DNA of 64,000 nucleotides from a virus, in the IMG/VR virus record IMGVR_UViG_2902229301_000001, positions 683-64,682 of that record; one strand, written 5' to 3'. Made by a program: the position numbers and the translations under genes. Of the stretch, positions 1,550 through 62,948 are shown piece after piece. A model generated the notes under the pieces. The model worked only from the letters and a program-made list of their open reading frames with translations, was not told where the DNA came from and did no database searches. How positions within the stretch are numbered: the stretch's first letter is position 1; each line of letters starts with the position of its first letter.

Positions 1550-2743
1550 ATGGCGACTAATTATCATCACGGTGTGACCGTCCGAGAAACAACGGATCTC
1601 AGCACCATCATTAACGATATCGACTCGGCAGTGATCGGCGTGGTGTGTACCGCCGATGATGCCGACGCTGATACGTTCCCGTTAAACGAACCGGTATTGT
1701 TAACCCGCGTTGCCAGCGTGTTAGGTAAGGCGGGTAAAACAGGCACGTTACACACGACTCTGAAATGCATTTCCGATCAGGCCAGCCCTCAAACGGTGGT
1801 GATCCGCGTGGCTGATGCGGCGAATGCGCAGGCAGAAGGCAGTGAACCTAAACCGACGCAGGATCAGTTAGTGATCGGCGGTTCCGATGCCAGCGGACGC
1901 TATACGGGGCTGTATGCGCTGCTGTCGGCAGAGGCGCGAATTGGTGTTCGCCCGCGCGTACTGGCCGTGCCGGAACTGGATACCCAAGCCGTTGCCGCAC
2001 AGTTGGCCGTAATAGCTGAAAAGCTAAACGCATTCGCCTATGTCAGTGCGCATGACTGCGCAACTATCGCGGCGGCGAAAACGTACCGCGAAAATTTCTC
2101 CCAGCGTGAACTTATGGTGATCTGGCCTGACTTTATCGCCTACGACACCGCCAAAGGGGAAAACGTTACCGTACCCGCGCCAGCGTTTGCGGTTGGCCTG
2201 CGTGCCAAAATTGATGCGGAAACAGGCTGGCACAAGGTGTTATCCAACGTTGCCGTAAACGGTGTGCTGGGGCTGAGCAAAGATGTGTATTTCACGCTAC
2301 AGGGAACGGATACCGACGCCGACGAGCTGAACAGCAACGGCATCACCACGCTGATTAAGCAGAACGGTTTTCGCTTTTGGGGATCACGCACCTGTGACCG
2401 TGAAACCTATCTGTTTGAAAGTTATACCCGTACCGCGCAAATCCTCGCAGACACCGTCGCAGAAGCGCATTTCTTCTACATTGATAAGCCGCTTACACCC
2501 TCACTGGCAAAGGATATTGTGGACGGCATCAACCGCAAGTTAACGGCGTTGGTCACCGCTGGCCGTCTGCTGGGTGCGAATTGTTGGTATGACAAAGAAA
2601 CCAACACCGGCGAAACGCTACGCACGGGAAAATTAACCATCAAGTACAACTACACACCCGTTCCGCCATTGGAGCACTTGGATCTGGTGCAGGAGTTTAC
2701 TGACGAATACTTCGCGACGTTCGCCAATACGTTCAGCGGGTAA
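1550..2743 (+). CDS. FI: Tail sheath protein FI
   Basis: NYHHGV..., [27 protein letters not shown] motifs. Confidence 0.95.
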   Translation: MATNYHHGVTVRETTDLSTIINDIDSAVIGVVCTADDADADTFPLNEPVLLTRVASVLGKAGKTGTLHTTLKCISDQASPQTVVIRVADAANAQAEGSEPKPTQDQLVIGGSDASGRYTGLYALLSAEARIGVRPRVLAVPELDTQAVAAQLAVIAEKLNAFAYVSAHDCATIAAAKTYRENFSQRELMVIWPDFIAYDTAKGENVTVPAPAFAVGLRAKIDAETGWHKVLSNVAVNGVLGLSKDVYFTLQGTDTDADELNSNGITTLIKQNGFRFWGSRTCDRETYLFESYTRTAQILADTVAEAHFFYIDKPLTPSLAKDIVDGINRKLTALVTAGRLLGANCWYDKETNTGETLRTGKLTIKYNYTPVPPLEHLDLVQEFTDEYFATFANTFSG

Positions 2744-2753
2744 GGGGTAAATC

Positions 2754-3269
2754 ATGTCTCTGCCAAAGAAACTTAAATACTTCAATCTGTTTATCGACGG
2801 TGACAACTATTTCGGCCAGGTGCCGGAAGTAACTCCGCCCAAACTCACGCGCAAGACGGAAGACTATCAGGCGGGCGGTATGCCTGGCTTTGTCGCGATT
2901 GACTTCGGTTTTGATGCGGGCGCGCTGGATATGGAAATCACCCTCGGCGGGCTGGATGCTGGCCTGTTGAAAAAGTGGGGCGTTTCCACTGCGGACGGTA
3001 TGCAAACGCGCTTTGCGGGTTCGTATCAGGATGAAGCCACAGGTGAAGCGGTGCCGTGTGAAATCCAGACGCGTGGCCGGTTTACCGAGCTTGACCCAGG
3101 CTCTGCCAAAGTGGGTGAAGATACGGCACATAAATACACCCTGAAAAATACCTACTTCAAGCTGACGATCAGCGGTGAAGAGGTCATGGAAGTGGATGTG
3201 CTGAACATGATTTATAAAGTGGCCGGTGTCGATATGCTGGAAAAACACCGTGCTAACGTTGGGCTATAA
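2754..3269 (+). CDS. FII: Major tail tube protein FII
   Basis: MSLPKKLKYFNLF...PKLTRKTEDYQAGGM. Confidence 0.95.
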   Translation: MSLPKKLKYFNLFIDGDNYFGQVPEVTPPKLTRKTEDYQAGGMPGFVAIDFGFDAGALDMEITLGGLDAGLLKKWGVSTADGMQTRFAGSYQDEATGEAVPCEIQTRGRFTELDPGSAKVGEDTAHKYTLKNTYFKLTISGEEVMEVDVLNMIYKVAGVDMLEKHRANVGL

Positions 3270-27295: not shown

Positions 27296-27658
27296 TTAAA
27301 GAGTTAAATGTTTGGGGAATAAACTCACAACTGCTTTAAGTTTATTCATCGCCTTAATCAGCTTTGCTTTTTCTTCAGTTGTCAGTTCATTAAATCTCAG
27401 GTTATGCCGTTCCTTATTAATATCTGCTAATTCAAATATCGCTGATAGCACGCGCATATTATCTGAATGCGTTGATTTTCTATCCTTACGGTTTCCGTCA
27501 TAAAATCTTTCATCGCGCAGATCATCAATAAATCGGCACATTTCTTTTTCACTGTTTGTGTGGAAGTGTTTCCCTCTCAGCATTGCTATGTGATTAAGCC
27601 CGTCAGTTCTGGCCGCGATACTCAGCGGAACGGCGCGGGCGGCTTCGGTATTAGCCAT
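27296..27658 (-). CDS. Early protein, DUF5347/gpB-position family
   Basis: GLNHIAMLRGKHF...LT.EEK..LIKAMN; syntenic with gpB. Confidence 0.6.
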   Translation of the reverse strand: MANTEAARAVPLSIAARTDGLNHIAMLRGKHFHTNSEKEMCRFIDDLRDERFYDGNRKDRKSTHSDNMRVLSAIFELADINKERHNLRFNELTTEEKAKLIKAMNKLKAVVSLFPKHLTL

Positions 27659-27663
27659 GACGG

Positions 27664-27861
27664 TTACGCCGCAATACCCATCAGGCGGGCAAACCAGCGG
27701 CGTTTTTTAGGCGCTGGCATATAGGGCTTTTTGCTCCAGGGTGCAAAGTAAGCCTGGGCGGGAGTTGGCTGGAAACGCTTGCCGTTTGGTAATTCCAACC
27801 AACCTTTTTCTTGCTGCGGGGATGGTGATTTTTCCTTTAATAAACGCGCTGTGCTAATCAT
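27664..27861 (-). CDS. fil: Fil-like (DUF2724) filamentation protein
   Basis: MIS.ARLLK..SPSP...GW.ELPNG.R.QP; homologue at 61269-61502. Confidence 0.7.
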   Translation of the reverse strand: MISTARLLKEKSPSPQQEKGWLELPNGKRFQPTPAQAYFAPWSKKPYMPAPKKRRWFARLMGIAA

Positions 27862-28067
27862 ATTACCGCCTCTAAAATTTTCTTGGTTAAGTAAAAAATA
27901 AAAAGCGCAGATACTGCAACTACAGCTACTTTTAAAAAAACAATATATGTGTTTATTAAATCTCTGTGGAAAGGTAGTTCTTTATCCCTCCATCGTTTAG
28001 TTACAACCACACCTAGGAATAAACAAACAATGATTTCTGAAAGAATGAATATTAGATTGTCACGCAT
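27858..28067 (-). CDS. Small AT-rich two-TM membrane protein
   Basis: Two hydrophobic segments; overlaps both neighbours (translational coupling). Confidence 0.6.
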   Translation of the reverse strand: MRDNLIFILSEIIVCLFLGVVVTKRWRDKELPFHRDLINTYIVFLKVAVVAVSALFIFYLTKKILEAVI

Positions 28068-28296
28068 GAATACAACCTCTCATTTCGTGCAGTCCATTAA
28101 TATAAGAAGTTGCTTGCCCTAATGCGTCAAATAACCCGAATGATTGATCGCCTTGACTCACTCGATAACGCGTTATCGGGTTAGTTGCTGTTCTGGGGCA
28201 GCGAATAATAGAAAATCCGCGATAAACGCTGGTATGTTCGCTGACTTTAATTAATGCATGATCGATACCTAAAAATACCAGCCGATTTTTTTCCAT
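28060..28296 (-). CDS. DUF4761-like early protein
   Basis: H...YRGF.I...PR...NPITRYRV....Q.FG.FDAL. Confidence 0.65.
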   Translation of the reverse strand: MEKNRLVFLGIDHALIKVSEHTSVYRGFSIIRCPRTATNPITRYRVSQGDQSFGLFDALGQATSYINGLHEMRGCIHA

Positions 28297-28298
28297 GA

Positions 28299-28511
28299 TT
28301 AAATTTCGCTATTGGTTATCGCATCACGAAGCATGGCGATTAAATTAACTTCGACTTTCTCCATTCGCGCTTTTTTGGGGCGAATGATTATCCGTCCGTC
28401 AGAAACCATTCCTTCGCAAGTGCGTAGAGGAATACCTGTCATTTCTGAATATGTTTTTAATGAAACATATGGAGTAGGGACGGTGATATTAATGTTTAAT
28501 GCCTTAGCCAT
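28299..28511 (-). CDS. cox: Cox/Apl-like excisionase-repressor
   Basis: I.VPTPYVSL..YS..TG.P.RT....V..GR+.IRPK...VN+.A+. Confidence 0.85.
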   Translation of the reverse strand: MAKALNINITVPTPYVSLKTYSEMTGIPLRTCEGMVSDGRIIIRPKKARMEKVEVNLIAMLRDAITNSEI

Positions 28512-28522
28512 TTCACCACCTA

Positions 28523-28714
28523 CTATCCTTGTGAGTTAAAAGATTCCAGTCCCCGCAGAAACACCAGACGGGCCATGCTTGAAAGCGAGCGACTTTCTTG
28601 TGCTGCCAATGCCGCTAACTTGTCGCGCTCATCGTCCGATAAGCGCATTGGGGTAGGGTTTTTGGACGCGATACCACGCGGTAAACGCGATCTCTGTTCA
28701 CTAATAGCTGCCAT
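28523..28714 (-). CDS. Ribbon-helix-helix (CopG-like) DNA-binding protein
   Basis: PMRLSDDERDKLAALA..ESRSLSSMARL. Confidence 0.75.
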   Translation of the reverse strand: MAAISEQRSRLPRGIASKNPTPMRLSDDERDKLAALAAQESRSLSSMARLVFLRGLESFNSQG

Positions 28715-28744
28715 TGTTACTTCTCCCACTATTAAGGTTTATAT

Positions 28745-28775
28745 GCCGGAATGTTTAGCCACGTCCGGCGCGTGG
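28745..28775 (-). ncRNA. Putative H-type pseudoknot element, copy 1
   Basis: CCACG-C-GCCGGA-CGTGG-CTAAACAT-TCCGGC; copies at 29564-29594 and 61557-61585 with covariation. Confidence 0.65.
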
Positions 28776-28780
28776 TTTTG

Positions 28781-28789
28781 TGATAGGCT
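28781..28789 (+). promoter_or_regulatory. Extended -10 promoter for antisense gene X1
   Basis: TG-A-TAGGCT; equivalents at 29592-29600 and 61591-61599. Confidence 0.55.
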
Positions 28790-28827
28790 TCAAGTGCTAC
28801 CAATCAACCAACCACAAAGGGAAATTT

Positions 28828-29295
28828 ATGGAACTTAATCTAACTTCCTGTCTTCGCACTTATAACCGTATTTCTGCTAATATCGCCAGTGCTTTAAAAA
28901 TTGATAATCCAGACAATACAAAGATTGCTCCATTTATAACTAATCGCTCTCTAATTATTTTTAAGCTTGAGCTTATTCTTTTTTATCACCGTGAAGAATT
29001 CGATAAGGAACGTAAAATTCTTTCTGGTGTAAATGCACTCACTCATTATTTGTTTTACAAAAAAAATGTATCCATTTTAGATGCGAGAAATATTAGGTTG
29101 CATGATGCAATAGTTATCTTATGTGATGAAATCAACCGCTATGTAATTCCAAATAATGTAATTAATTTCATCATCGAACATGGTGATAACTACAGTTCAT
29201 CCGATGAAAATATATCTCAACTTACGGAAAGGTTCTCTTCTTACATAAATAATGAATGGGATGCTAATTTTGCTGATGAACTACTTCGGCAATAA
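28828..29295 (+). CDS. Hypothetical AT-rich protein X1 (possibly ECs1072-family), antisense to early operon
   Basis: ATG at 28828 after AAAGGG RBS; family guess from memory only. Confidence 0.7.
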   Translation: MELNLTSCLRTYNRISANIASALKIDNPDNTKIAPFITNRSLIIFKLELILFYHREEFDKERKILSGVNALTHYLFYKKNVSILDARNIRLHDAIVILCDEINRYVIPNNVINFIIEHGDNYSSSDENISQLTERFSSYINNEWDANFADELLRQ

Positions 29296-29539
29296 ATTCG
29301 TCGAGTTCAGCTAACCTTTTTTCCGATTCATCAGCATTAGCCCGCAGCTTTTCAGGTTTTCCACGGAGAGAACTGCGGGTATCCAGTGTATCAGCGGTTT
29401 CACGCAGGAATTTAATCAACTCACCATCGCTCAACCCTGCGCTGAAAATTTTAGGTCGTTTTTGAGCCTCTACCTCTGCACCTACAGCACATTCCCTGGT
29501 GTTGGACTGTGCGCTCAGATGATGATTTTCTTGTGTCAT
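29264..29539 (-). CDS. Hypothetical protein Y1 (MTQENHH...)
   Basis: GGAG RBS; first 22 codons shared with Y2. Confidence 0.7.
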   Translation of the reverse strand: MTQENHHLSAQSNTRECAVGAEVEAQKRPKIFSAGLSDGELIKFLRETADTLDTRSSLRGKPEKLRANADESEKRLAELDEFIAEVVHQQN

Positions 29540-29540
29540 A
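29474..29540. repeat. 67-bp direct repeat copy 1 (copy 2 at 30022-30088)
   Basis: CTCTGCACCTACAGCAC...GGTGTTGGACTGTGCGCTCAGAT.ATGATTTTCTTGTGTCATA. Confidence 0.9.
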
Positions 29541-29563
29541 TATTTCTCCATTTTTAAGTATGT

Positions 29564-29594
29564 GCCGGAGTTTTTAGCCACGTCCGGCGCGTGG
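29564..29594 (-). ncRNA. Putative H-type pseudoknot element, copy 2
   Basis: CCACG-C-GCCGGA-CGTGG-CTAAAAAC-TCCGGC. Confidence 0.65.
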
Positions 29595-29633
29595 TATCCT
29601 CACTGCTCTCACACAAAGTAAGGATGTTATGAA

Positions 29634-29840
29634 ATGACAAACAAAGAACTACAAATAAAAGAAACTGGTGAAGTGATAAAAGCTGCATTAAATAATGGTT
29701 CTCTCCAGCAATTATCTCAGTTAGTTGCAAATCAGCTTCCGGCTAGAAGTGATGGTTCATTCCCCGCACACAACTCAATTACTTTCGAAGAGTTGTACGC
29801 AACCGTATTCAATGCAGTAGGCAAAGCTATCAAGTCTTAA
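29634..29840 (+). CDS. Hypothetical 68-aa protein X2, antisense to early operon
   Basis: AAGGA RBS; TGGTATCCT extended -10 upstream. Confidence 0.65.
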   Translation: MTNKELQIKETGEVIKAALNNGSLQQLSQLVANQLPARSDGSFPAHNSITFEELYATVFNAVGKAIKS

Positions 29841-30087
29841 CCGCTGATCCAGATAGCACATTGCAAGACTCTGTTTCTGCTGCCACTGCTAGTGTCAGAA
29901 TAATTTTTATATCTCGGCTGAAGACCTTTTTTCCAAGCTCTTCAGCCTTTTTATTAATACTTTCCGTAAGGCTGGCTGCGATACTCAGTCGCTCATTATT
30001 TTCCAATACCCCCAAGTTCTTCTCTGCACCTACAGCACGATCCCCGGTGTTGGACTGTGCGCTCAGATCATGATTTTCTTGTGTCAT
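29830..30087 (-). CDS. Hypothetical protein Y2 (MTQENHD...), first gene of early operon
   Basis: Directly downstream of the early promoter; shares N-terminus with Y1. Confidence 0.65.
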   Translation of the reverse strand: MTQENHDLSAQSNTGDRAVGAEKNLGVLENNERLSIAASLTESINKKAEELGKKVFSRDIKIILTLAVAAETESCNVLSGSAVKT

Positions 30088-30088
30088 A
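30022..30088. repeat. 67-bp direct repeat copy 2
   Basis: Near-identical to 29474-29540. Confidence 0.9.
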
Positions 30089-30089
30089 A

Positions 30090-30155
30090 TGGTATGTTGT
30101 GATCCACTGTTAGCCTGTGAAAATCATTATGAGATCTATTGATCTCTTTTGTCAA
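30090..30155. promoter_or_regulatory. Face-to-face lytic/lysogenic promoters with operator
   Basis: Minus strand TTGACA (30150-55)-N18-CATAAT (30126-31); GAGATC-N4-GATCTC palindrome 30131-30146; plus strand TGGTATGTT 30090-98. Confidence 0.6.
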
Positions 30156-30164
30156 GGTAGAAAA

Positions 30165-30557
30165 GTGACTTTTAGATCTCTTTGTGTCGAGCGACTGAAA
30201 TCCGAACGGAAACGGCTATCCCTGAATCAGGCAGATGTGGCCGAATTGTGCGGAGTGTCGAGGGAAACATGGGGTAAATACGAAAGGGGCTCTATGGTGC
30301 CAGGAGGAGATGTTTTGCTCTCTTTTGCCATGGCGGGAGCAAACATCCAATTTGTTCTGACTGGTGAAGAATCTGGCGGTGTTGCTCTTTCGCGAGATGA
30401 AATTGAACTGGTCAAAAGCTTTAGAGCGGCTCCTTTGGCAGTAAAAGCTGCTGCGCTGGGCGCATTGACGGCGGGTAGCTCTGCAACAGCATCGATAAAC
30501 GTAACGGGTAGCGGCCAGCGTGTAGCGGGCAGGGACTATCACGAAGGTAAGAAGTAG
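30165..30557 (+). CDS. cI: XRE-family immunity repressor
   Basis: ERLKSERKRLSLNQADVAELCGVSRETWGKYERG HTH; GTG start at 30165 preferred. Confidence 0.88.
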   Translation: MTFRSLCVERLKSERKRLSLNQADVAELCGVSRETWGKYERGSMVPGGDVLLSFAMAGANIQFVLTGEESGGVALSRDEIELVKSFRAAPLAVKAAALGALTAGSSATASINVTGSGQRVAGRDYHEGKK

Positions 30558-30579
30558 CGAAGCATCAAGGATGTAATGG

Positions 30580-31182
30580 ATGACCGTAGAGGCTCAAGGG
30601 GATAGTAATCGGGTCGCAGGACGTGATTATTACGAAAAAAATATCAATATTGCCGCCCCACAAACTAAAGAAGATTTGCGCCCGTTGGTTAGCGCACAGC
30701 GTTCCCAATTAAACCAACTGGTAAAAGATATTGCGGAAGCAGGGCGTGAAGATGTGCGTTTTGTTTGGCGGCGTTTACATGCTGAGCTTGGTGTGAATGG
30801 TATTGAAGAAATCACCATCAGCCAGTATTCCACGGCGCTAAGTTTCCTGAATGCATTACATGATCGCAGTCGGGAAAAGGATGCTAATAACAAATTAGTG
30901 TCCCAATTATTAAGAAGCACACAGCAGAACGAATTACGTGAACAGCTTACGCGGTTCTGTCACATCAATTTTGGTACAAGCCGGTTAATTGATTTAACTC
31001 GCCCCCAGCTTCAGCAAGCAATGAGATGGCTGGATGAACGGCAGGGCAGAACTACACCCAATGCATCACCCCCAAAAGCGCAGACGTGGCAAGATGCGGT
31101 AAATACCTTAAAAGCAGAACCTCGGATTTTTGGCGCAGTGCTTGCGACGGGTATCGTGCTGGGAATGTTGTTGGCGCATTGA
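30580..31182 (+). CDS. Membrane-anchored protein with N-terminal RVAGRDY motif and ORF6C-like segment
   Basis: C-terminal TM (IFGAVLATGIVLGMLLA); VWRRLH..LGV..I.EI...QY..AL.FL. Confidence 0.7.
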   Translation: MTVEAQGDSNRVAGRDYYEKNINIAAPQTKEDLRPLVSAQRSQLNQLVKDIAEAGREDVRFVWRRLHAELGVNGIEEITISQYSTALSFLNALHDRSREKDANNKLVSQLLRSTQQNELREQLTRFCHINFGTSRLIDLTRPQLQQAMRWLDERQGRTTPNASPPKAQTWQDAVNTLKAEPRIFGAVLATGIVLGMLLAH

Positions 31183-31230
31183 TATCAGTTTCTCTAAGAA
31201 TATAAATTTAACTATATTAGCGAGCTAATC

Positions 31231-32061
31231 ATGACTGATGAAAATACCTCTGAAAATGATAAGTCTTCTGGAAATAATAAAGTCGCGGAAACTATTAATG
31301 CTGTGACTGGGCTTACACAGTCAGTGCCAGTGTATCAGGATTTGATACAGCCAGCAGCGCAGGAGCTAGGCAAAGGTCTTGCGGTTATTGCCAAATCAAT
31401 AAATGTTGCTCTTTCGCCGTTAAGCGTAATGGTTTGGGGGTATGAAAAGATTCAAGATCAGTTTATGCCTAAAGTGGCCGAAAAATTAAAAAATACCAAG
31501 CCAGAAGATATCATCACACCTAAACCCAATGTTGCGGTTCCTGCGATTGAAGCATTACGGTATACGGCAGATGATGAGTCTTTAAGTGATTTGTTTGCAG
31601 GGTTACTATCTTCTGCTATGGATAAAAATAAATCAAGCAAAGCACACCCTGCCTTCGTTGAAATTATTAAGCAATTAACAGCAGATGAAGCGAAAATAAT
31701 TACAGTAATCAAAGATAAAAGGGGGATTCCGTTAATAGATATTGTTGTTTTTAATGATGAAATTAATTCTCAAAATATTGTCTATAGCAATCTTTCTTCT
31801 TTTTCATTTGGGAGGGGATTGGAACAACCACAACAATTCTCATCTTATGTTTATAACTTATGTCGACTTGGGTTACTTGAAATACCAGCAGAGTATATTT
31901 ATCTAGACTCCGATGTTTATGATGAAATTATCAATAGTTCCTTTTGGAAGGAGGTGAGTGACGCTGTGAAGTTAAAAGAAAATCAAAGCTTTCATTATGA
32001 TAGAAAAGTATTAACTATTACAGCTATGGGGAAACAGTTTATATCTGTGTGTATTGGTTAA
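31231..32061 (+). CDS. DUF4393/Abi-alpha family protein
   Basis: PAAQELG, PKPNVAVPAIE...LF..LL.SAMD, HPAFVEIIKQLT.DEA, L.RLGLL. Confidence 0.8.
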   Translation: MTDENTSENDKSSGNNKVAETINAVTGLTQSVPVYQDLIQPAAQELGKGLAVIAKSINVALSPLSVMVWGYEKIQDQFMPKVAEKLKNTKPEDIITPKPNVAVPAIEALRYTADDESLSDLFAGLLSSAMDKNKSSKAHPAFVEIIKQLTADEAKIITVIKDKRGIPLIDIVVFNDEINSQNIVYSNLSSFSFGRGLEQPQQFSSYVYNLCRLGLLEIPAEYIYLDSDVYDEIINSSFWKEVSDAVKLKENQSFHYDRKVLTITAMGKQFISVCIG

Positions 32062-34267: not shown

Positions 34268-34491
34268 GGTTAACCTTTATAGTATATAGCCAGTCATAAT
34301 ACTCTGCGCGGTTGTTAGAGCCTGATTTTTGAGTCCAGTGCATGGTAGTGCGGTTGGTAAGTGTTATGTGCTGTATGCTTAGTAACTAGTATATCTGTTA
34401 ATTAGATATGAATAATAGAACAGCCTAAGGACATAGAATCAGTGGCAGCAAAAACGAGCATAGCGCAATATTTCGTACAATACCGTAATTG

Positions 34492-34504
34492 CAACTCATT
34501 GATA
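34492..34504 (-). promoter_or_regulatory. IHF site in att arm
   Basis: TATCAATGAGTTG fits WATCAR-N4-TTR; a second, 1-mismatch site at 34616-34628. Confidence 0.6.
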
Positions 34505-34542
34505 TCATTTAACCTATTGTTTTATTTAATGTGGTGTAACTT

Positions 34543-34597
34543 TTTAAAATCCCTCGGCGTTCGCGCTGTGCGGGTTCAAGTCCCGCCCCGGGCACCA
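34543..34597 (+). repeat. att core = 3' half of tRNA-Leu(TAA), leuZ-type; junction between prophages
   Basis: TTTAAAATCCCTCGGCGTTCGCGCTGTGCGGGTTCAAGTCCCGCCCCGGGCACCA; 5' acceptor/D arms absent. Confidence 0.9.
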
Positions 34598-34642
34598 TTG
34601 ATTTAAAAAGAATTAAAACAAGCACTTATGTGCAATGTCGTG

Positions 34643-34665
34643 AACCGCCGAGAGGCGGTTTTTTT
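34643..34665 (+). terminator. Phage-supplied terminator after tRNA 3' end
   Basis: AACCGCC-GAGA-GGCGGTT-TTTTT. Confidence 0.8.
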
Positions 34666-34681
34666 GTGCCTGAAAAATAGC

Positions 34682-34714
34682 AAGTGGCGGCAAAATGGCG
34701 ACAGAGTGGCGACG
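34682..34714 (+). repeat. Three 11-bp-periodic TGGCGRC repeats, probable integrase arm sites
   Basis: TGGCG at 34685, 34696, 34707; related TGGCAGCA at 34443 on the other arm. Confidence 0.6.
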
Positions 34715-34808
34715 CTTATTTTGAGTTTATGATAAATGGTTATTGTTATGACTGAAGGATGAGTTATTTATTAAGGCCTGTCTTTTACTAATTATTCATT
34801 TTTATTGA

Positions 34809-35027
34809 TTATACCCACATCTGGAATTGCTTATTAGAAGCAGGGTGGGGTGTCACTGGATCTATCTTCCCAGGCTCAACTATTGAGCGGGTGACGCTTT
34901 CAAGTGTAACAAACGTATGGCCGCAATTGATGTTTGTACATTGGTGATAGCGTTCTTTAGTAGATTCGCTTAAGTAGCGGCTTGAACGAGCATGGGCAGC
35001 ATGTCGGCAGAGTGGGCAATGCATCAT
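34809..35027 (-). CDS. ogr: Ogr late activator
   Basis: MMHCPLC...ERYHQCTNINCGHTF, 72 aa. Confidence 0.95.
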   Translation of the reverse strand: MMHCPLCRHAAHARSSRYLSESTKERYHQCTNINCGHTFVTLESVTRSIVEPGKIDPVTPHPASNKQFQMWV

Positions 35028-35113
35028 AATTTTATCCTTAACTGGCTTTTTTCTATCTAATATTACCATTTAATTCAAATAATGGAATTTTGTTCAAAAA
35101 ATTGATTTTAATC

Positions 35114-36271
35114 TTATTCACTTCCCTCATACTCAATATCAGACAGCAGCACCTCCAATTCCAACGCGGTAACGTATCCTGAATTACTCAAACTGTGCGT
35201 CACTTTTGAGATTGTCCATTCCTGTTCGTCGATCACCTGCTTAAAGCCGCTCACCTGAACAGGGGTTTCCGGGAACAGGTCAGCGCGCCCCATTGCTAGC
35301 GTAATAGAAAACTCCGCGACACCCCGTTGCAGTTTGTCCCACTTTGCCTGTGCGGCACGCATGGCTTGTGCTTTGGTCGCAAATACCGTGGTCAATGCCA
35401 ACACATTTTCATCGGTGCCGACCAGATAATCACCCTCGCGAGCTTCTGGCTCCTTCTTTGTCTTTTTCGATTTAGGGTGTGGCTTCTGGGGTTGTGGCCC
35501 TTGATGCAATAGCACTTTCTTCTGACGTTTTACCTTTACCGTTTTCGGTTTTTCATGCTGCGGCTCTTTGGTATGCAGCCAGCTTGCCGTGACGCCTGTG
35601 TACGCGCCCCGGTCAGCCAGACTAAAACTGTGCTGATCGCCGTCGCTGCGCTCAATTATCTGCTGCGGGATAGGTTTGCCGCTGGCCGTCTTCCCCGTTC
35701 CAGGACGGATAAACAGCAAACGCCCGGCCTTGATCGCCACTATTGCCCCGTTGCGCTCAGCCAGCCGGGTAATAAATACCGCGTCGGTTTCCTGCGTCTG
35801 GTCGATGTGCGGAATTTTTATCCCCGCGAATCCGTCGGCCAGCATCGGCGCAAGATTGTTACGCTTCGCCACCTGTTCAACAATCGCCCCCAGCGTCATA
35901 TCGTGATACGACTGCTCACGCCGGGCGTTCAGCGACCCGCGAAAATCGGCACTCCGCGCCCTGATGGTGAGCGTATCCGGCGTGCCACGGTGTTCTATTT
36001 CATCCACCGTAAAATCGCCTTTGCCGATCAGCGCGTCTCCTTCCCAGCCCAAAAACACCGACAGCACCGCGCCCCGGCGGGGTAACTGCAACAGCCCGTC
36101 GCTGTCGTCCAGCTCGATGTCGAGCTGATCGGCTTCAAATCCCCGGTTATCGGTCAGGCTCAGTGACAACAGGCGCGGACTGATAACGGTCGTGATGTCC
36201 TGCTCATTGAGTCGCAGCAGGTACGCGGGAGCGATTTTACTGCCAGCGCGAACATTCAGCGGGTTAATCAT
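35114..36271 (-). CDS. D: Late control/tail protein D
   Basis: LTDNRGFEADQLDIELDD. Confidence 0.93.
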   Translation of the reverse strand: MINPLNVRAGSKIAPAYLLRLNEQDITTVISPRLLSLSLTDNRGFEADQLDIELDDSDGLLQLPRRGAVLSVFLGWEGDALIGKGDFTVDEIEHRGTPDTLTIRARSADFRGSLNARREQSYHDMTLGAIVEQVAKRNNLAPMLADGFAGIKIPHIDQTQETDAVFITRLAERNGAIVAIKAGRLLFIRPGTGKTASGKPIPQQIIERSDGDQHSFSLADRGAYTGVTASWLHTKEPQHEKPKTVKVKRQKKVLLHQGPQPQKPHPKSKKTKKEPEAREGDYLVGTDENVLALTTVFATKAQAMRAAQAKWDKLQRGVAEFSITLAMGRADLFPETPVQVSGFKQVIDEQEWTISKVTHSLSNSGYVTALELEVLLSDIEYEGSE

Positions 36272-60771: not shown

Positions 60772-61272
60772 TTAATTCAGATATTCTTCGGGTTTAATTG
60801 CCGTCAGAATGTCGGGGGCAGCATCAAATAAACTCACAAGCTCATTTAATGCGCGTAATATTAGTTTACGCCATTGGCATGATTCATCGTCAATACGCCA
60901 ATAAGGTTGATTAAATTCTTTTTCAGTTAACCCCGCGTGCATAAATAAGGTTTTTCTCTCGCCGACATTTAACCAGCTCAGAAACGTTGACGTATTCACA
61001 CCACGGATGCGACCTTTTGAGAAAGCCCGGCGCAGTTCATCAATGGCGCAGACAATCCGCTCACGCTCTGCGGTTGGCATTTCCTCCAGACGGTAAACGG
61101 TCTGGCTCTTTTTCATCTGCGCATGAAAGCAGAGGGTCAAACGGTCACGCTCATGCAGGCTATTGTAATACGCGCAGATTTCACGCCAGCGGCTATCAGC
61201 AAAGTGCTTGCCGATCACGTTGCGCAGCCCAGCGGGTAAATTCTGCATACTGCTGACGGTAAAGGCTGTCAT
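60772..61272 (-). CDS. B: Replication protein B-like
   Basis: LPAGLR..IG.HF...RW...C..Y.S...RLTLCFHA, IV.AIDELR. Confidence 0.8.
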   Translation of the reverse strand: MTAFTVSSMQNLPAGLRNVIGKHFADSRWREICAYYNSLHERDRLTLCFHAQMKKSQTVYRLEEMPTAERERIVCAIDELRRAFSKGRIRGVNTSTFLSWLNVGERKTLFMHAGLTEKEFNQPYWRIDDESCQWRKLILRALNELVSLFDAAPDILTAIKPEEYLN

Positions 61273-61502
61273 GCTTTCCCCCTCAGTCCAACAATACGGT
61301 GCAATAGCGATATTAGTCGCAACGGCAACGCACGATGTTTTTGTTCAGGCATATAAGGCTTACTGCTCCACGGAGCGAAATAAACCTGGTGAGGTTTTGG
61401 CTGGCAGCGTTGACCATTCGACAGCTCAAACCAGCCTTTACCCTGGTTCATCAGTCCCGGTGCAGGCGACTGACTAATGAGTAAACGAGCAATGGAAATC
61501 AT
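61269..61502 (-). CDS. fil: Fil-like (DUF2724) protein
   Basis: MISIARLL..QSPAP...GW..L.NG.R..P. Confidence 0.7.
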   Translation of the reverse strand: MISIARLLISQSPAPGLMNQGKGWFELSNGQRCQPKPHQVYFAPWSSKPYMPEQKHRALPLRLISLLHRIVGLRGKA

Positions 61503-61556: not shown

Positions 61557-61585
61557 GCCGGGTTTTAGCCATGCCCGGCGCATGG
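61557..61585 (-). ncRNA. Putative H-type pseudoknot element, copy 3
   Basis: CCATG-C-GCCGGG-CATGG-CTAAAA-CCCGGC; both stems covary relative to copies 1 and 2. Confidence 0.65.
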
Positions 61586-61637
61586 TCTTGTGGTAGGATT
61601 GAATCGCCAAAAACAACCAACCACAAAAGAGGGAATC

Positions 61638-61826
61638 ATGATTGAAAAGGAAATAATCAATCTTCTCGATAAAACGCTTTCAAAAACTCTCGACGTTATT
61701 GAACCGATCAAGTTGTCCGAAAATGACCGTCATGAAGTTGAAAGCCTCTATAAACAATTAGGCAAAGCACTTGACCGTAGTTTAGGAACTAACATCAGCC
61801 CTAAAGGATTTGTGGGGAACATTTAA
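61638..61826 (+). CDS. Hypothetical 62-aa protein X3, antisense to early operon
   Basis: GAGGG RBS; TGGTAGGAT extended -10. Confidence 0.7.
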   Translation: MIEKEIINLLDKTLSKTLDVIEPIKLSENDRHEVESLYKQLGKALDRSLGTNISPKGFVGNI

Positions 61827-62422
61827 ATACCGACGGGGCGTTTAATCGTCCCGCGTTCTCTCCCCAAATAATCCAAAAAAACAGATGCAACTTTTTCATA
61901 AGAAAGGCCAGTATCAAATTCCTTACCTGAATTAAGATGTATAACAGCGGTTACATCATATTTTCTTTTAATTTCAGAAATCGCCACTATGGAATCAGAT
62001 TTGATAACAATACGGCCATCAATCGTATTAATACGCATACAGCCATATGTGTCTTTTGATAGTGTTTTTTCCTCTATAAATCGGGAGGAAATGAAATCGT
62101 CAATACCATCAACGACACTAGATACGCTGCCATAATTTTTATCAGTAAAGCATTCAACCATATAGTGAACATTGCCGACATGTTCACCATGTAAATGATA
62201 TTGGCGGCATAAAGGGGCTGTATGTTTACTGTCTTTATTCAAGTTAACGAAACAGTTACCTGACGGCTGGGATGATGCTTTCAGTTCATTAATCTCATTA
62301 CTCATTTCACGAGCATATTCTTCCAGATTATCAAGGAACAAATTCGCACTCTTAATACTGAGGTTTCCGTTTTTCAAATCGGCACGCCCCGCATTAATAA
62401 AACCAAAAATTGGCATTTCCAT
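61823..62422 (-). CDS. Hypothetical AT-rich 199-aa protein Y3
   Basis: Long ORF between cII and fil, converging on X3. Confidence 0.7.
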   Translation of the reverse strand: MEMPIFGFINAGRADLKNGNLSIKSANLFLDNLEEYAREMSNEINELKASSQPSGNCFVNLNKDSKHTAPLCRQYHLHGEHVGNVHYMVECFTDKNYGSVSSVVDGIDDFISSRFIEEKTLSKDTYGCMRINTIDGRIVIKSDSIVAISEIKRKYDVTAVIHLNSGKEFDTGLSYEKVASVFLDYLGRERGTIKRPVGI

Positions 62423-62432
62423 TTTTTCTTAC

Positions 62433-62948
62433 TCACCCAACATTCAAAGACGCCCCGATCCCGCTCAGTGCATCTACGGTGGAAGCCATTGCGGGATTGG
62501 CTTGTATTCTGGTTTGCAGCGTCAACCCGACTAACGACAGATAGCGAATGCCGGAATTGATGCTTTCCATAAAAGAATTTCGCCGTGTTTGACTCATTCG
62601 CTCAGTAGAGAGGCTTTCCGCTGCGACAGCGCCGACGGCTGCGGTTGCCTGCAACACGTAAGTGGTAAGGCGTTCTGCTTTCGCTTCGTTGACGGGAACG
62701 GCAGGCAGGCAATTAAGCTGTGCCAGCAGGCCGTCGATCAGCGTTGAATCCTCAGAGGCATCCGTGATGGTCAACAGGTCATCGCACGTTAAGCGGTGAG
62801 GCTGTTCCGGGTTCAACTTGTTGCGCAGCATCTGTGGGTTCATGCCTACCATTTCCGCCAGTTCAACCAGGTTGTGCCTGGTGGCAAATGCGCGACACGC
62901 ATTGGCATAGTGCGGGTGTTTTGCGATTTGGTAATCAAACATGGTCAA
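62433..62948 (-). CDS. cII: CII lysogeny-establishment activator (186-type)
   Basis: MFDYQ..KHPH...ACR.FA..HNL.ELA....M..Q.LRNKLNP.QPH.LT. Confidence 0.9.
   Translation of the reverse strand: MTMFDYQIAKHPHYANACRAFATRHNLVELAEMVGMNPQMLRNKLNPEQPHRLTCDDLLTITDASEDSTLIDGLLAQLNCLPAVPVNEAKAERLTTYVLQATAAVGAVAAESLSTERMSQTRRNSFMESINSGIRYLSLVGLTLQTRIQANPAMASTVDALSGIGASLNVG

Follow-up and report, generated by a model that had tools for sequence, protein, structure and literature searches.

In phages P22 and lambda, the sieB/esc/sas system couples a prophage exclusion gene to the means of overcoming it, as the gene is countered by the phage's own early antisense RNA and by an escape protein (PMC12197685). 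Lambda sieB (34482-35036, +) lies antisense inside the pL operon and abuts N (35037-35438, -) with zero gap. Owen et al. (2020, PMC7067206) describe antisense orientation and a promoter of their own as typical of those prophage accessory loci that are expressed. Studies of P2-like phages have used the core genes on either side, together with known defence models, to define hotspots (Rousset et al. 2022, PMC9122126; PMC13586616), and the interval from integrase to gpA is a minor hotspot with 8% of the P2 defence systems (PMC13586616). Here we describe a locus with features of these systems in a stretch of 64,000 nucleotides (nt), referred to below as the window (positions 683 to 64,682 of IMGVR_UViG_2902229301_000001, a 69.8-kb IMG/VR provirus). 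The window holds two adjacent P2/186-type prophages. Three times within it, a short conserved sequence (the element) is followed by a gene, X, that runs against the early lytic operon and meets a gene of that operon, Y, tail to tail (X1/Y1 and X2/Y2 in prophage 1, X3/Y3 in prophage 2). We propose that these pairs are moron-like two-gene accessory modules in which X would be made in the lysogen and Y during lytic growth, with Y perhaps counteracting X. To this proposal we give an even chance of being correct.

We found no description of the element, the antisense orientation or the X/Y pairing in the two hotspot studies (PMC9122126 and PMC13586616), and a literature search for the element sequence found no paper containing it. 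New here are the insertion after codon 7 of an early gene, the tandem cassettes, the modular build of Y, the pairing statistics and the covariation counts of the element.

Convergent gene pairs in the early operons

In prophage 1, X1 (28828..29295, +; 155 amino acids, aa) converges on Y1 (29264..29539, -; 91 aa), and X2 (29634..29840, +; 68 aa) converges on Y2 (29830..30087, -), the first gene after the early lytic promoter (Pe). In prophage 2, X3 (61638..61826, +; 62 aa) converges on Y3 (61823..62422, -; 199 aa). The most likely start of Y1 is the ATG at 29539, preceded by GGAG, and not the GTG at 29581. The 3' ends overlap by 32, 11 and 4 bp in X1/Y1, X2/Y2 and X3/Y3, respectively, and we found no terminator-like site or hairpin at any of the three junctions. 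Thus, any transcripts crossing these junctions must be mutually antisense. All X genes read in the direction of the repressor and integrase genes, against the operon, and the Y genes read with the operon from Pe.

The first-pass annotation had reported the three element-X(+)><Y(-) pairs with these overlaps, and all six open reading frames (ORFs) were found where it had placed them. It was also right that the junctions leave no room for a terminator, that X points in the lysogenic direction behind a promoter-like motif of its own and Y follows the early lytic promoter, and that the same architecture with different gene content marks a variable slot. Its placement of the prophage 1 cassettes between the early promoter and cox holds in that they lie in the early operon, but cox is not their immediate neighbour: element 1 is separated from the cox/apl-like gene by an Arc-like ribbon-helix-helix gene (28523..28714, -; phrog_3431), which is the displaced first early gene.

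The X genes are AT-rich (31% G+C in X1, 38% in X2 and 37% in X3, versus ~50% for the backbone genes gpA, Arc and C). The antisense-X stretches, which are untranslated in the early transcript, are poor in C in the early sense (14-18% C); this is a weak observation that may point to limited Rho loading. Y1 and Y2 share their first 22 residues, encoded by a common 67 nt at 94% identity, and this constant N-terminus is followed by a C-terminal domain of Y1 type or Y2 type.

X and Y as protein-coding genes

X1 matches the NCBIfam family NF033230 ("ECs1072 family phage-associated protein") over its full length (E 2.9e-33; 114.9 bits versus a cut-off of 70) and has homologues at 28%-91% identity. Its ratio of non-synonymous to synonymous substitution rates (dN/dS) is 0.15-0.21. 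The AlphaFold2 model of X1 is confident and all-helical, with a predicted local distance difference test score (pLDDT) of 90 and a predicted template modelling score (pTM) of 0.88. Foldseek against the PDB returned no match for this fold at E up to 0.001, the AlphaFold Database cluster matches were unnamed only, and the best VIA-align hit had a Z of 4.3, so that no solved or named fold was convincing. Weak rows for a HEPN fold (template modelling score 0.25) were dismissed. ECs1072, a member of the X1 family, gave an array signal in an uninduced O157 lysogen (PMC2241611).

The remaining ORFs are known from fewer relatives. X2 has relatives at 36-50% identity in three related loci (numbered with L here and below; L110, L085 and L103), and X3 has an Enterobacter homologue at 64% identity. 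Homologues of Y1 occur in Pectobacterium and Dickeya, with a conserved domain of ~60 residues and a dN/dS of 0.27-0.53 in two comparisons. Y3 has 16 homologues, down to 43% identity, and a structural model too poor for a fold search (pLDDT 59). Pfam, PHROGs, PADLOC and NCBIfam gave no family for Y1, Y2, X2, X3 or Y3; weak rows for JAB (Y3) and for cyclase and HisB (X3) were judged to be chance. Megablast of this part of the window, with INPHARED phages and E. coli genomes as targets, gave nothing useful, and tblastn of X1 against phages gave no match. We conclude that X and Y are real genes and that selection acts on X1 and Y1.

Insertion site and cassette structure

Twenty-three related IMG/VR loci were fetched, anchored on a conserved 78-aa early gene. 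Three of these (L013, L016 and L017) have neither X, Y nor the element; here, the Arc-like gene is the first early gene, adjoins the switch region and starts MTQENHDQRSRLPRG (MTQENHD). The Arc-like gene of the window starts MAAISEQRSRLPRG (MAAISEQ), behind a strong Shine-Dalgarno site supplied by the end of the cassette, and MTQENHD is found at the head of Y2 and, as a second copy, at the head of Y1. That the start of the cassette-free relatives now heads both Y genes indicates that the two cassettes of prophage 1 were inserted, one behind the other, after codon 7 of the first early gene. By such an insertion each Y would begin with the N-terminus of the Arc-like gene, which explains the N-terminus common to Y1 and Y2. 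The far end of a cassette consists of the element, a new ribosome-binding site and a start codon for the displaced gene, and its other strand carries the promoter-like motif and leader of X. Prophage 2 has a single module, located between cII and fil.

Two elements per early region are also present in L123 (at 10735 and 11620), L144 (1077 and 1654) and L275 (1811-1858 and 2403-2448). Thus, tandem cassettes are not exclusive to the window.

A shared element with two covarying stems

Elements 1 (28745..28775) and 2 (29564..29594) are 31-nt copies of a repeat that spans 31-33 nt at 28745 and 29564 and contains two interleaved stems. Element 3 (61557..61585), a 29-nt variant, differs from them by compensatory changes in both stems. 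A scan with the exact pattern found six further IMG/VR contigs. A degenerate pattern, in which two stem positions were left free and the other nine pairs fixed, matched more than 118 stretches, with ~99 distinct contexts judged genuine, in P2-like phages. BLAST located the element in Salmonella phages SEN4/SEN5 and in Yersinia phages vB_YpM_115/117 and vB_YenM_42.18. The exact element was absent from the genome contig collection that we scanned, where the degenerate pattern was swamped by G+C-rich chance matches.

The two free stem pairs covary: one is CG in 48 copies and UA in 31, with zero mismatches, and the other is GC in 62, AU in 11 and otherwise composed in 5. Overall, 99.4% of the stem cells are paired, versus 27-43% when the partners are slid, and the remaining variation is confined to the loops. 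By eye, diverged copies (in L096 and lambda) show further compensatory change in the longer stem. These compensatory changes argue that both stems are kept. As the stems interleave, the element could form an H-type pseudoknot, the structure named in the first-pass annotation. By inspection, the loop lengths would suit such a fold in the early-sense RNA alone, with a stem S1 of 5 bp, a loop L1 of 1 nt, a stem S2 of 6 bp and a loop L3 of 5-9 nt. In the X-sense RNA, 1 nt would have to cross a 6-bp stem. Three copies of the element have a G-T, a wobble pair only in X-sense RNA, and the element may act at the DNA level. Nested RNA folding of either strand was uninformative for a pseudoknot, and an Rfam covariance search of 27500-31500 (E up to 10) returned chance-level rows only, none near the gathering score.

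Several conventional roles for the element were rejected. As a terminator, it would lack a U-run in the early-sense RNA and have a weak and inconstant one in the X-sense. As a core promoter or activator site, it would have to tolerate a spacing to the -10 motif that varies from 0 to ~30 nt. As an operator of the phage's own C, Cox or Arc, it would have to serve different regulators, as the same element accompanies different ones.

Each X is preceded by an extended -10 motif on the plus strand. For X1, this is TGaTAGGCT (28781..28789), followed by a CA-rich leader, a Shine-Dalgarno site and the ATG at 28828. For X2, we read TGgTATCCT (29592..29600), which abuts element 2, and for X3 TGgTAGGAT (61591..61599), downstream of element 3. 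Across loci, TGnTAnnnT occurs downstream of the element in the X sense in 74/88 cases, compared with 2/88 upstream, 1/88 on the other strand and 9/88 in shuffled sequence; the preferred offsets from the element are -3, +4 to +6 and +29. X has a predicted promoter of its own. Seen from the early-sense RNA, the next early gene starts at most 40 nt from the element in 48 of 95 loci and at most 70 nt from it in 76.

The leaders have further regularities. In the window (28776-28827) and in the equivalent leaders of other loci, a stretch of 6-8 nt immediately behind the element, overlapping the -10 motif, is complementary to one of 6-8 nt immediately ahead of the Shine-Dalgarno site. The complementary words differ by leader class (TTTGTGGT/ACCACAAA, TTCTGG/CCAGAA and TCTTGG/CCAAGA) and may point to another RNA stem, which only early-sense or read-through RNA would contain in full. 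In a third leader class (L033, L052, L091, L147 and others), two copies of TTCCACAGNCAA flank the -10-like motif, and two copies of CCCCTACAG are arranged likewise upstream of lambda sieB (L274, 600-680). These TTCCACAGNCAA/CCCCTACAG repeats may be operator sites.

Pairing of X and Y in related phages

Cross-locus ORFs were called with a simple script, and the counts of overlaps, X clusters and shared Y ends are approximate. Among the P2-like contigs of IMG/VR, X and Y have overlapping ends in 34 of 86 scorable loci by this crude call, and lie 0-30 nt apart in 18 more. The element-X(+)><Y(-) layout is also present in Salmonella SEN4/SEN5 and Yersinia vB_YpM_115. Recurrence of the layout both in these contigs and in named phages goes beyond chance. 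Clustered by sequence, the genes that follow the element give some 30-40 groups, with dozens of unrelated X proteins among them.

For the pairing of X1 with Y1, an alignment search for the X1 family found 11 IMG/VR loci, in which identity to X1 ranges from 54% down to 33% and backbones and operon positions vary. In all 11, the convergent ORF that overlaps the 3' end of X carries the Y1-type C-terminal domain (hmmsearch E 1e-17 to 7e-51). The overlaps are 29 to 77 nt long, the Y proteins have 78 to 202 residues, and their N-terminal parts differ. Dickeya zeae has an X1/Y1 pair with the identical 32-nt overlap. The X3/Y3 pair recurs in an Enterobacter P2-type prophage (64% and 44% identity, respectively) with the 4-nt overlap and the element, positioned after cox rather than after cII as in the window. 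A Logan contig has an X3/Y3 pair with a 4-nt overlap and the element as well. For X2, a 151-aa protein adjoins the relative in L110; its C-terminus resembles Y2 (E 2e-5), and its N-terminal part is the one fused to the Y1-type domain in the X1 loci L279-L282. Together, these comparisons indicate that the Y proteins are modular, with an N-terminal part from the backbone and a C-terminal domain that goes with the type of X. Over all loci, the Y C-terminus is shared in 17 of 101 locus pairs with homologous X, versus 11 of 2365 with unrelated X.

Proposed mechanism and alternative explanations

Under the proposed mechanism, X would be expressed in the repressed prophage as an accessory protein, probably one for phage exclusion. 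Upon induction, transcription from Pe would run antisense through X and could reduce how much of it is made, through interference between promoters or through an RNA duplex. Y would come from the same transcript and would counteract or replace its own X so that lytic growth is unharmed. As RNA in the early transcript, the element could help the expression of the displaced early genes. The idea that Y counteracts X is drawn by analogy with sieB/esc/sas in P22 and lambda.

A number of points weigh against this proposal. The timing that we propose, with X made by the lysogen and Y during lytic growth, is inferred from the sequence. None of X1-X3 and Y1-Y3 matches a defence, toxin or antitoxin family in PADLOC, Pfam, NCBIfam or PHROGs. 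One very close pair of Y1 genes has a dN/dS of 2.7, a value from only 11 changes, and Y2 resembles the partner of the X2 relative in L103 weakly (E 0.15). Y1 is also found, at 82% identity, beside an unrelated cassette of a 37-aa ORF and a 160-aa protein with two transmembrane segments (2-TM), in L012 and in P. aroidearum (loci L012 and L273). The 2-TM X family meets nine different Y C-termini. Thus, a dedicated partner is not the general rule, and the specific association of X with Y holds for the three pairs of the window. The survey of X/Y pair diversity called for in the first-pass annotation accordingly has a divided outcome: pairing is non-random for these three (X1/Y1 in 11/11 loci, X3/Y3 in Enterobacter, X2/Y2 in L110) but not universal, given Y1 with a 2-TM X. 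Lastly, the overlap of their ends might by itself be enough for X and Y to stay together, with no functional tie between them.

The last point leads to the rival that survives best, which we regard as possible though somewhat unlikely: X and Y could be independent cargo morons that occupy one permissive slot and are co-inherited via their overlapping ends and recombination at conserved flanks. It is favoured by the different X beside Y1 in L012 and L273, by the nine different neighbours of the 2-TM family, by the sharing of Y ends in only 17/101 locus pairs with homologous X and by Y N-termini that belong to backbone genes. It fits less well with the X1 relatives, which down to 33% identity and in varied backbones and positions are always accompanied by a Y1-type domain. 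X3 and Y3, moreover, moved jointly between 186-type and P2-type operons, and the pairs persist although their surroundings are all mosaic.

A regulatory role for the act of transcription is very unlikely. Here, transcription of X, which lies upstream of the repressor gene and is co-oriented with it, would brake Pe in antisense and perhaps read through into C, tuning the lysis-lysogeny switch, and the proteins would matter little. Face-to-face promoter interference is established for the pR/pL switch of phage 186 and offers a precedent, and X2 is directly upstream of the repressor promoter (Pc) and C, on the same strand and with no clear terminator between. Yet X1 is under purifying selection and has a confidently folded model, and the same leader serves dozens of unrelated X proteins. 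Some modules are also distant from the switch: that of prophage 2 follows cII, and those of other phages come after cox or precede gpB.

A toxin-antitoxin or addiction pair, as the first-pass annotation had suggested, in which X or Y is toxic, its partner neutralises it and the prophage is stabilised or infection aborted, is very unlikely: the modules are small, mobile, variable and two-gene, and X1 always has a Y1-type partner whereas Y1 is found without X1, but the genes are convergent behind different promoters, unlike the single co-directional autoregulated operon of type II systems, a repressed lysogen would make X only and leave a toxic X unopposed, X1-X3 are unlike the small hydrophobic peptides of type I systems, and no toxin or antitoxin family was matched by X1-3 or Y1-3 in Pfam, NCBIfam or PADLOC.

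The proposal of accessory modules with X in the lysogen and Y in lytic growth can be extended, in a form that we consider rather unlikely, to a large and so far undescribed class of exclusion-and-escape modules in P2-like phages. In this class, of which lambda sieB would be a diverged relative, dozens of unrelated X proteins made by prophages would each be disarmed by a matched Y domain made early, the modules would be mobilised as cassettes bounded by the element, and an RNA pseudoknot would secure the displaced early genes.

If X proteins made in lysogens do act against other phages, the slot would be an unexplored reservoir of some 30-40 small gene families; none of its X families is recognised by current defence models. 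If the Y domains are matched inhibitors, each module would be a ready-made defence/counter-defence pair. The shared element provides a simple sequence handle for locating such cassettes and poses a structural question, that of an RNA pseudoknot in the early transcript versus a DNA site. The layout also accounts for a common misannotation, namely long spurious ORFs called on the strand opposite to real antisense genes, for example in Yersinia phage vB_YenM_42.18.

In that phage (L271), the deposited 221-aa minus-strand coding sequence at 2551-3216 is probably a false call. Its plus strand has, behind the element, a 39-aa acidic ORF (2615-2734) and a 156-aa 2-TM gene (2737-3207; phrog_6315), and an acidic ORF with a 2-TM gene is the commonest cassette in the set. 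A guess that the 2-TM X family is SLATT-like was not borne out by Pfam.

Gene order of the two prophages

The source names of the closest protein homologues suggest Pectobacterium as the host of both prophages, with relatives in Dickeya. In prophage 1, Pe (30126..30155, -) reads TTGACA-N18-CATAAT, with 11/12 consensus matches, and its spacer contains an operator-like palindrome, GAGATC-N4-GATCTC. The likely Pc of the repressor operon, read from an extended -10 motif, TGgTATGTT (30090..30098, +), faces Pe, and a Pc-like motif (TGnTATGTT) is kept at the equivalent position in the cassette-free relative L013. The two promoters are apparently face to face with ~15-20 nt between them. In this region (30088-30165), the first early gene (Y2 here, the Arc-like gene in cassette-free relatives) has no Shine-Dalgarno sequence, and its initial seven codons overlap the stretch upstream of the likely Pc -10.

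The early lytic operon on the minus strand consists of Pe, Y2, Y1, the Arc-like gene, the cox/apl-like excisionase-repressor (28299..28511; phrog_575), small genes, a fil-like gene, a Dam methylase and gpA (26144-23520). In the phage group of the window, the head of this operon has both Arc-like ribbon-helix-helix and cox/apl-like genes (28299-28714); sister loci (L003, L005, L019 and L020) have a single P2-type Cox in their place. The plus strand encodes a C/CI-type helix-turn-helix (HTH) repressor (30117..30557; Pfam HTH_31/HTH_3; alternative start GTG at 30165), a 200-aa protein, an Abi_alpha gene and the integrase. The C-terminal end of the repressor, ...GQRVAGRDYHEGKK, and the start of the next protein, ...NRVAGRDYYEKN (30504-30636), have a motif in common, and the protein after the repressor has a weak score on the NCBIfam Flk model. 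The Abi_alpha gene (31231-32061; PF14337, PADLOC PDC-S47) in the repressor-integrase operon is a candidate prophage defence gene; its position is occupied by other genes in relatives.

Prophage 2 has the layout of 186: its plus strand carries CI, its minus strand apl, cII, Y3 and fil. The cII gene (CP76; 62433..62948, -; PF06892) is the early gene upstream of Y3, and the fil-like early gene (61269..61499, -; PF10893) lies downstream of element 3.

Comparison with known systems

The slot falls within the integrase-to-gpA interval, and an Abi_alpha/PDC-S47 gene is present in the adjoining repressor operon, as would suit the defence hotspots of P2-like phages. Unlike the systems by which those hotspots are recognised, no X or Y matches a PADLOC model. 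NF033230 is a "hypothetical equivalog" with no assigned function, and membership names X1 without explaining it.

The likeness to sieB is one of layout. In lambda, an exclusion gene and the first early gene meet tail to tail, the former lying antisense in the early leftward operon, and the X/Y pairs of the window match this arrangement. By eye, an element-like sequence with a compensatory change can also be seen upstream of lambda sieB; nhmmer with the element profile fails to detect this copy, and the link is one made by inspection. In contrast, a PHROG scan gave no SieB match for the X proteins that it covered, and lambda SieB compared with the 2-TM X family by BLASTP yielded an E of 59. The proposed escape function would here belong to a separate gene on the opposite strand, rather than to an in-frame internal product. 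A further difference from lambda is that we know of no N-like antitermination in P2-type phages.

The modules also resemble morons, in the sense of Hendrix and Juhala. Cassettes are present or absent at the same site among close relatives (L013, L016 and L017 are without), and the X genes of the window are foreign, AT-rich, equipped with a promoter-like motif and antisense to lytic genes. Unlike morons, they have no factor-independent terminator of their own at the X/Y junctions, and the two genes of a module converge and often overlap. One of the two is an in-frame fusion to the beginning of a backbone gene, and every cassette is bounded by a conserved element.

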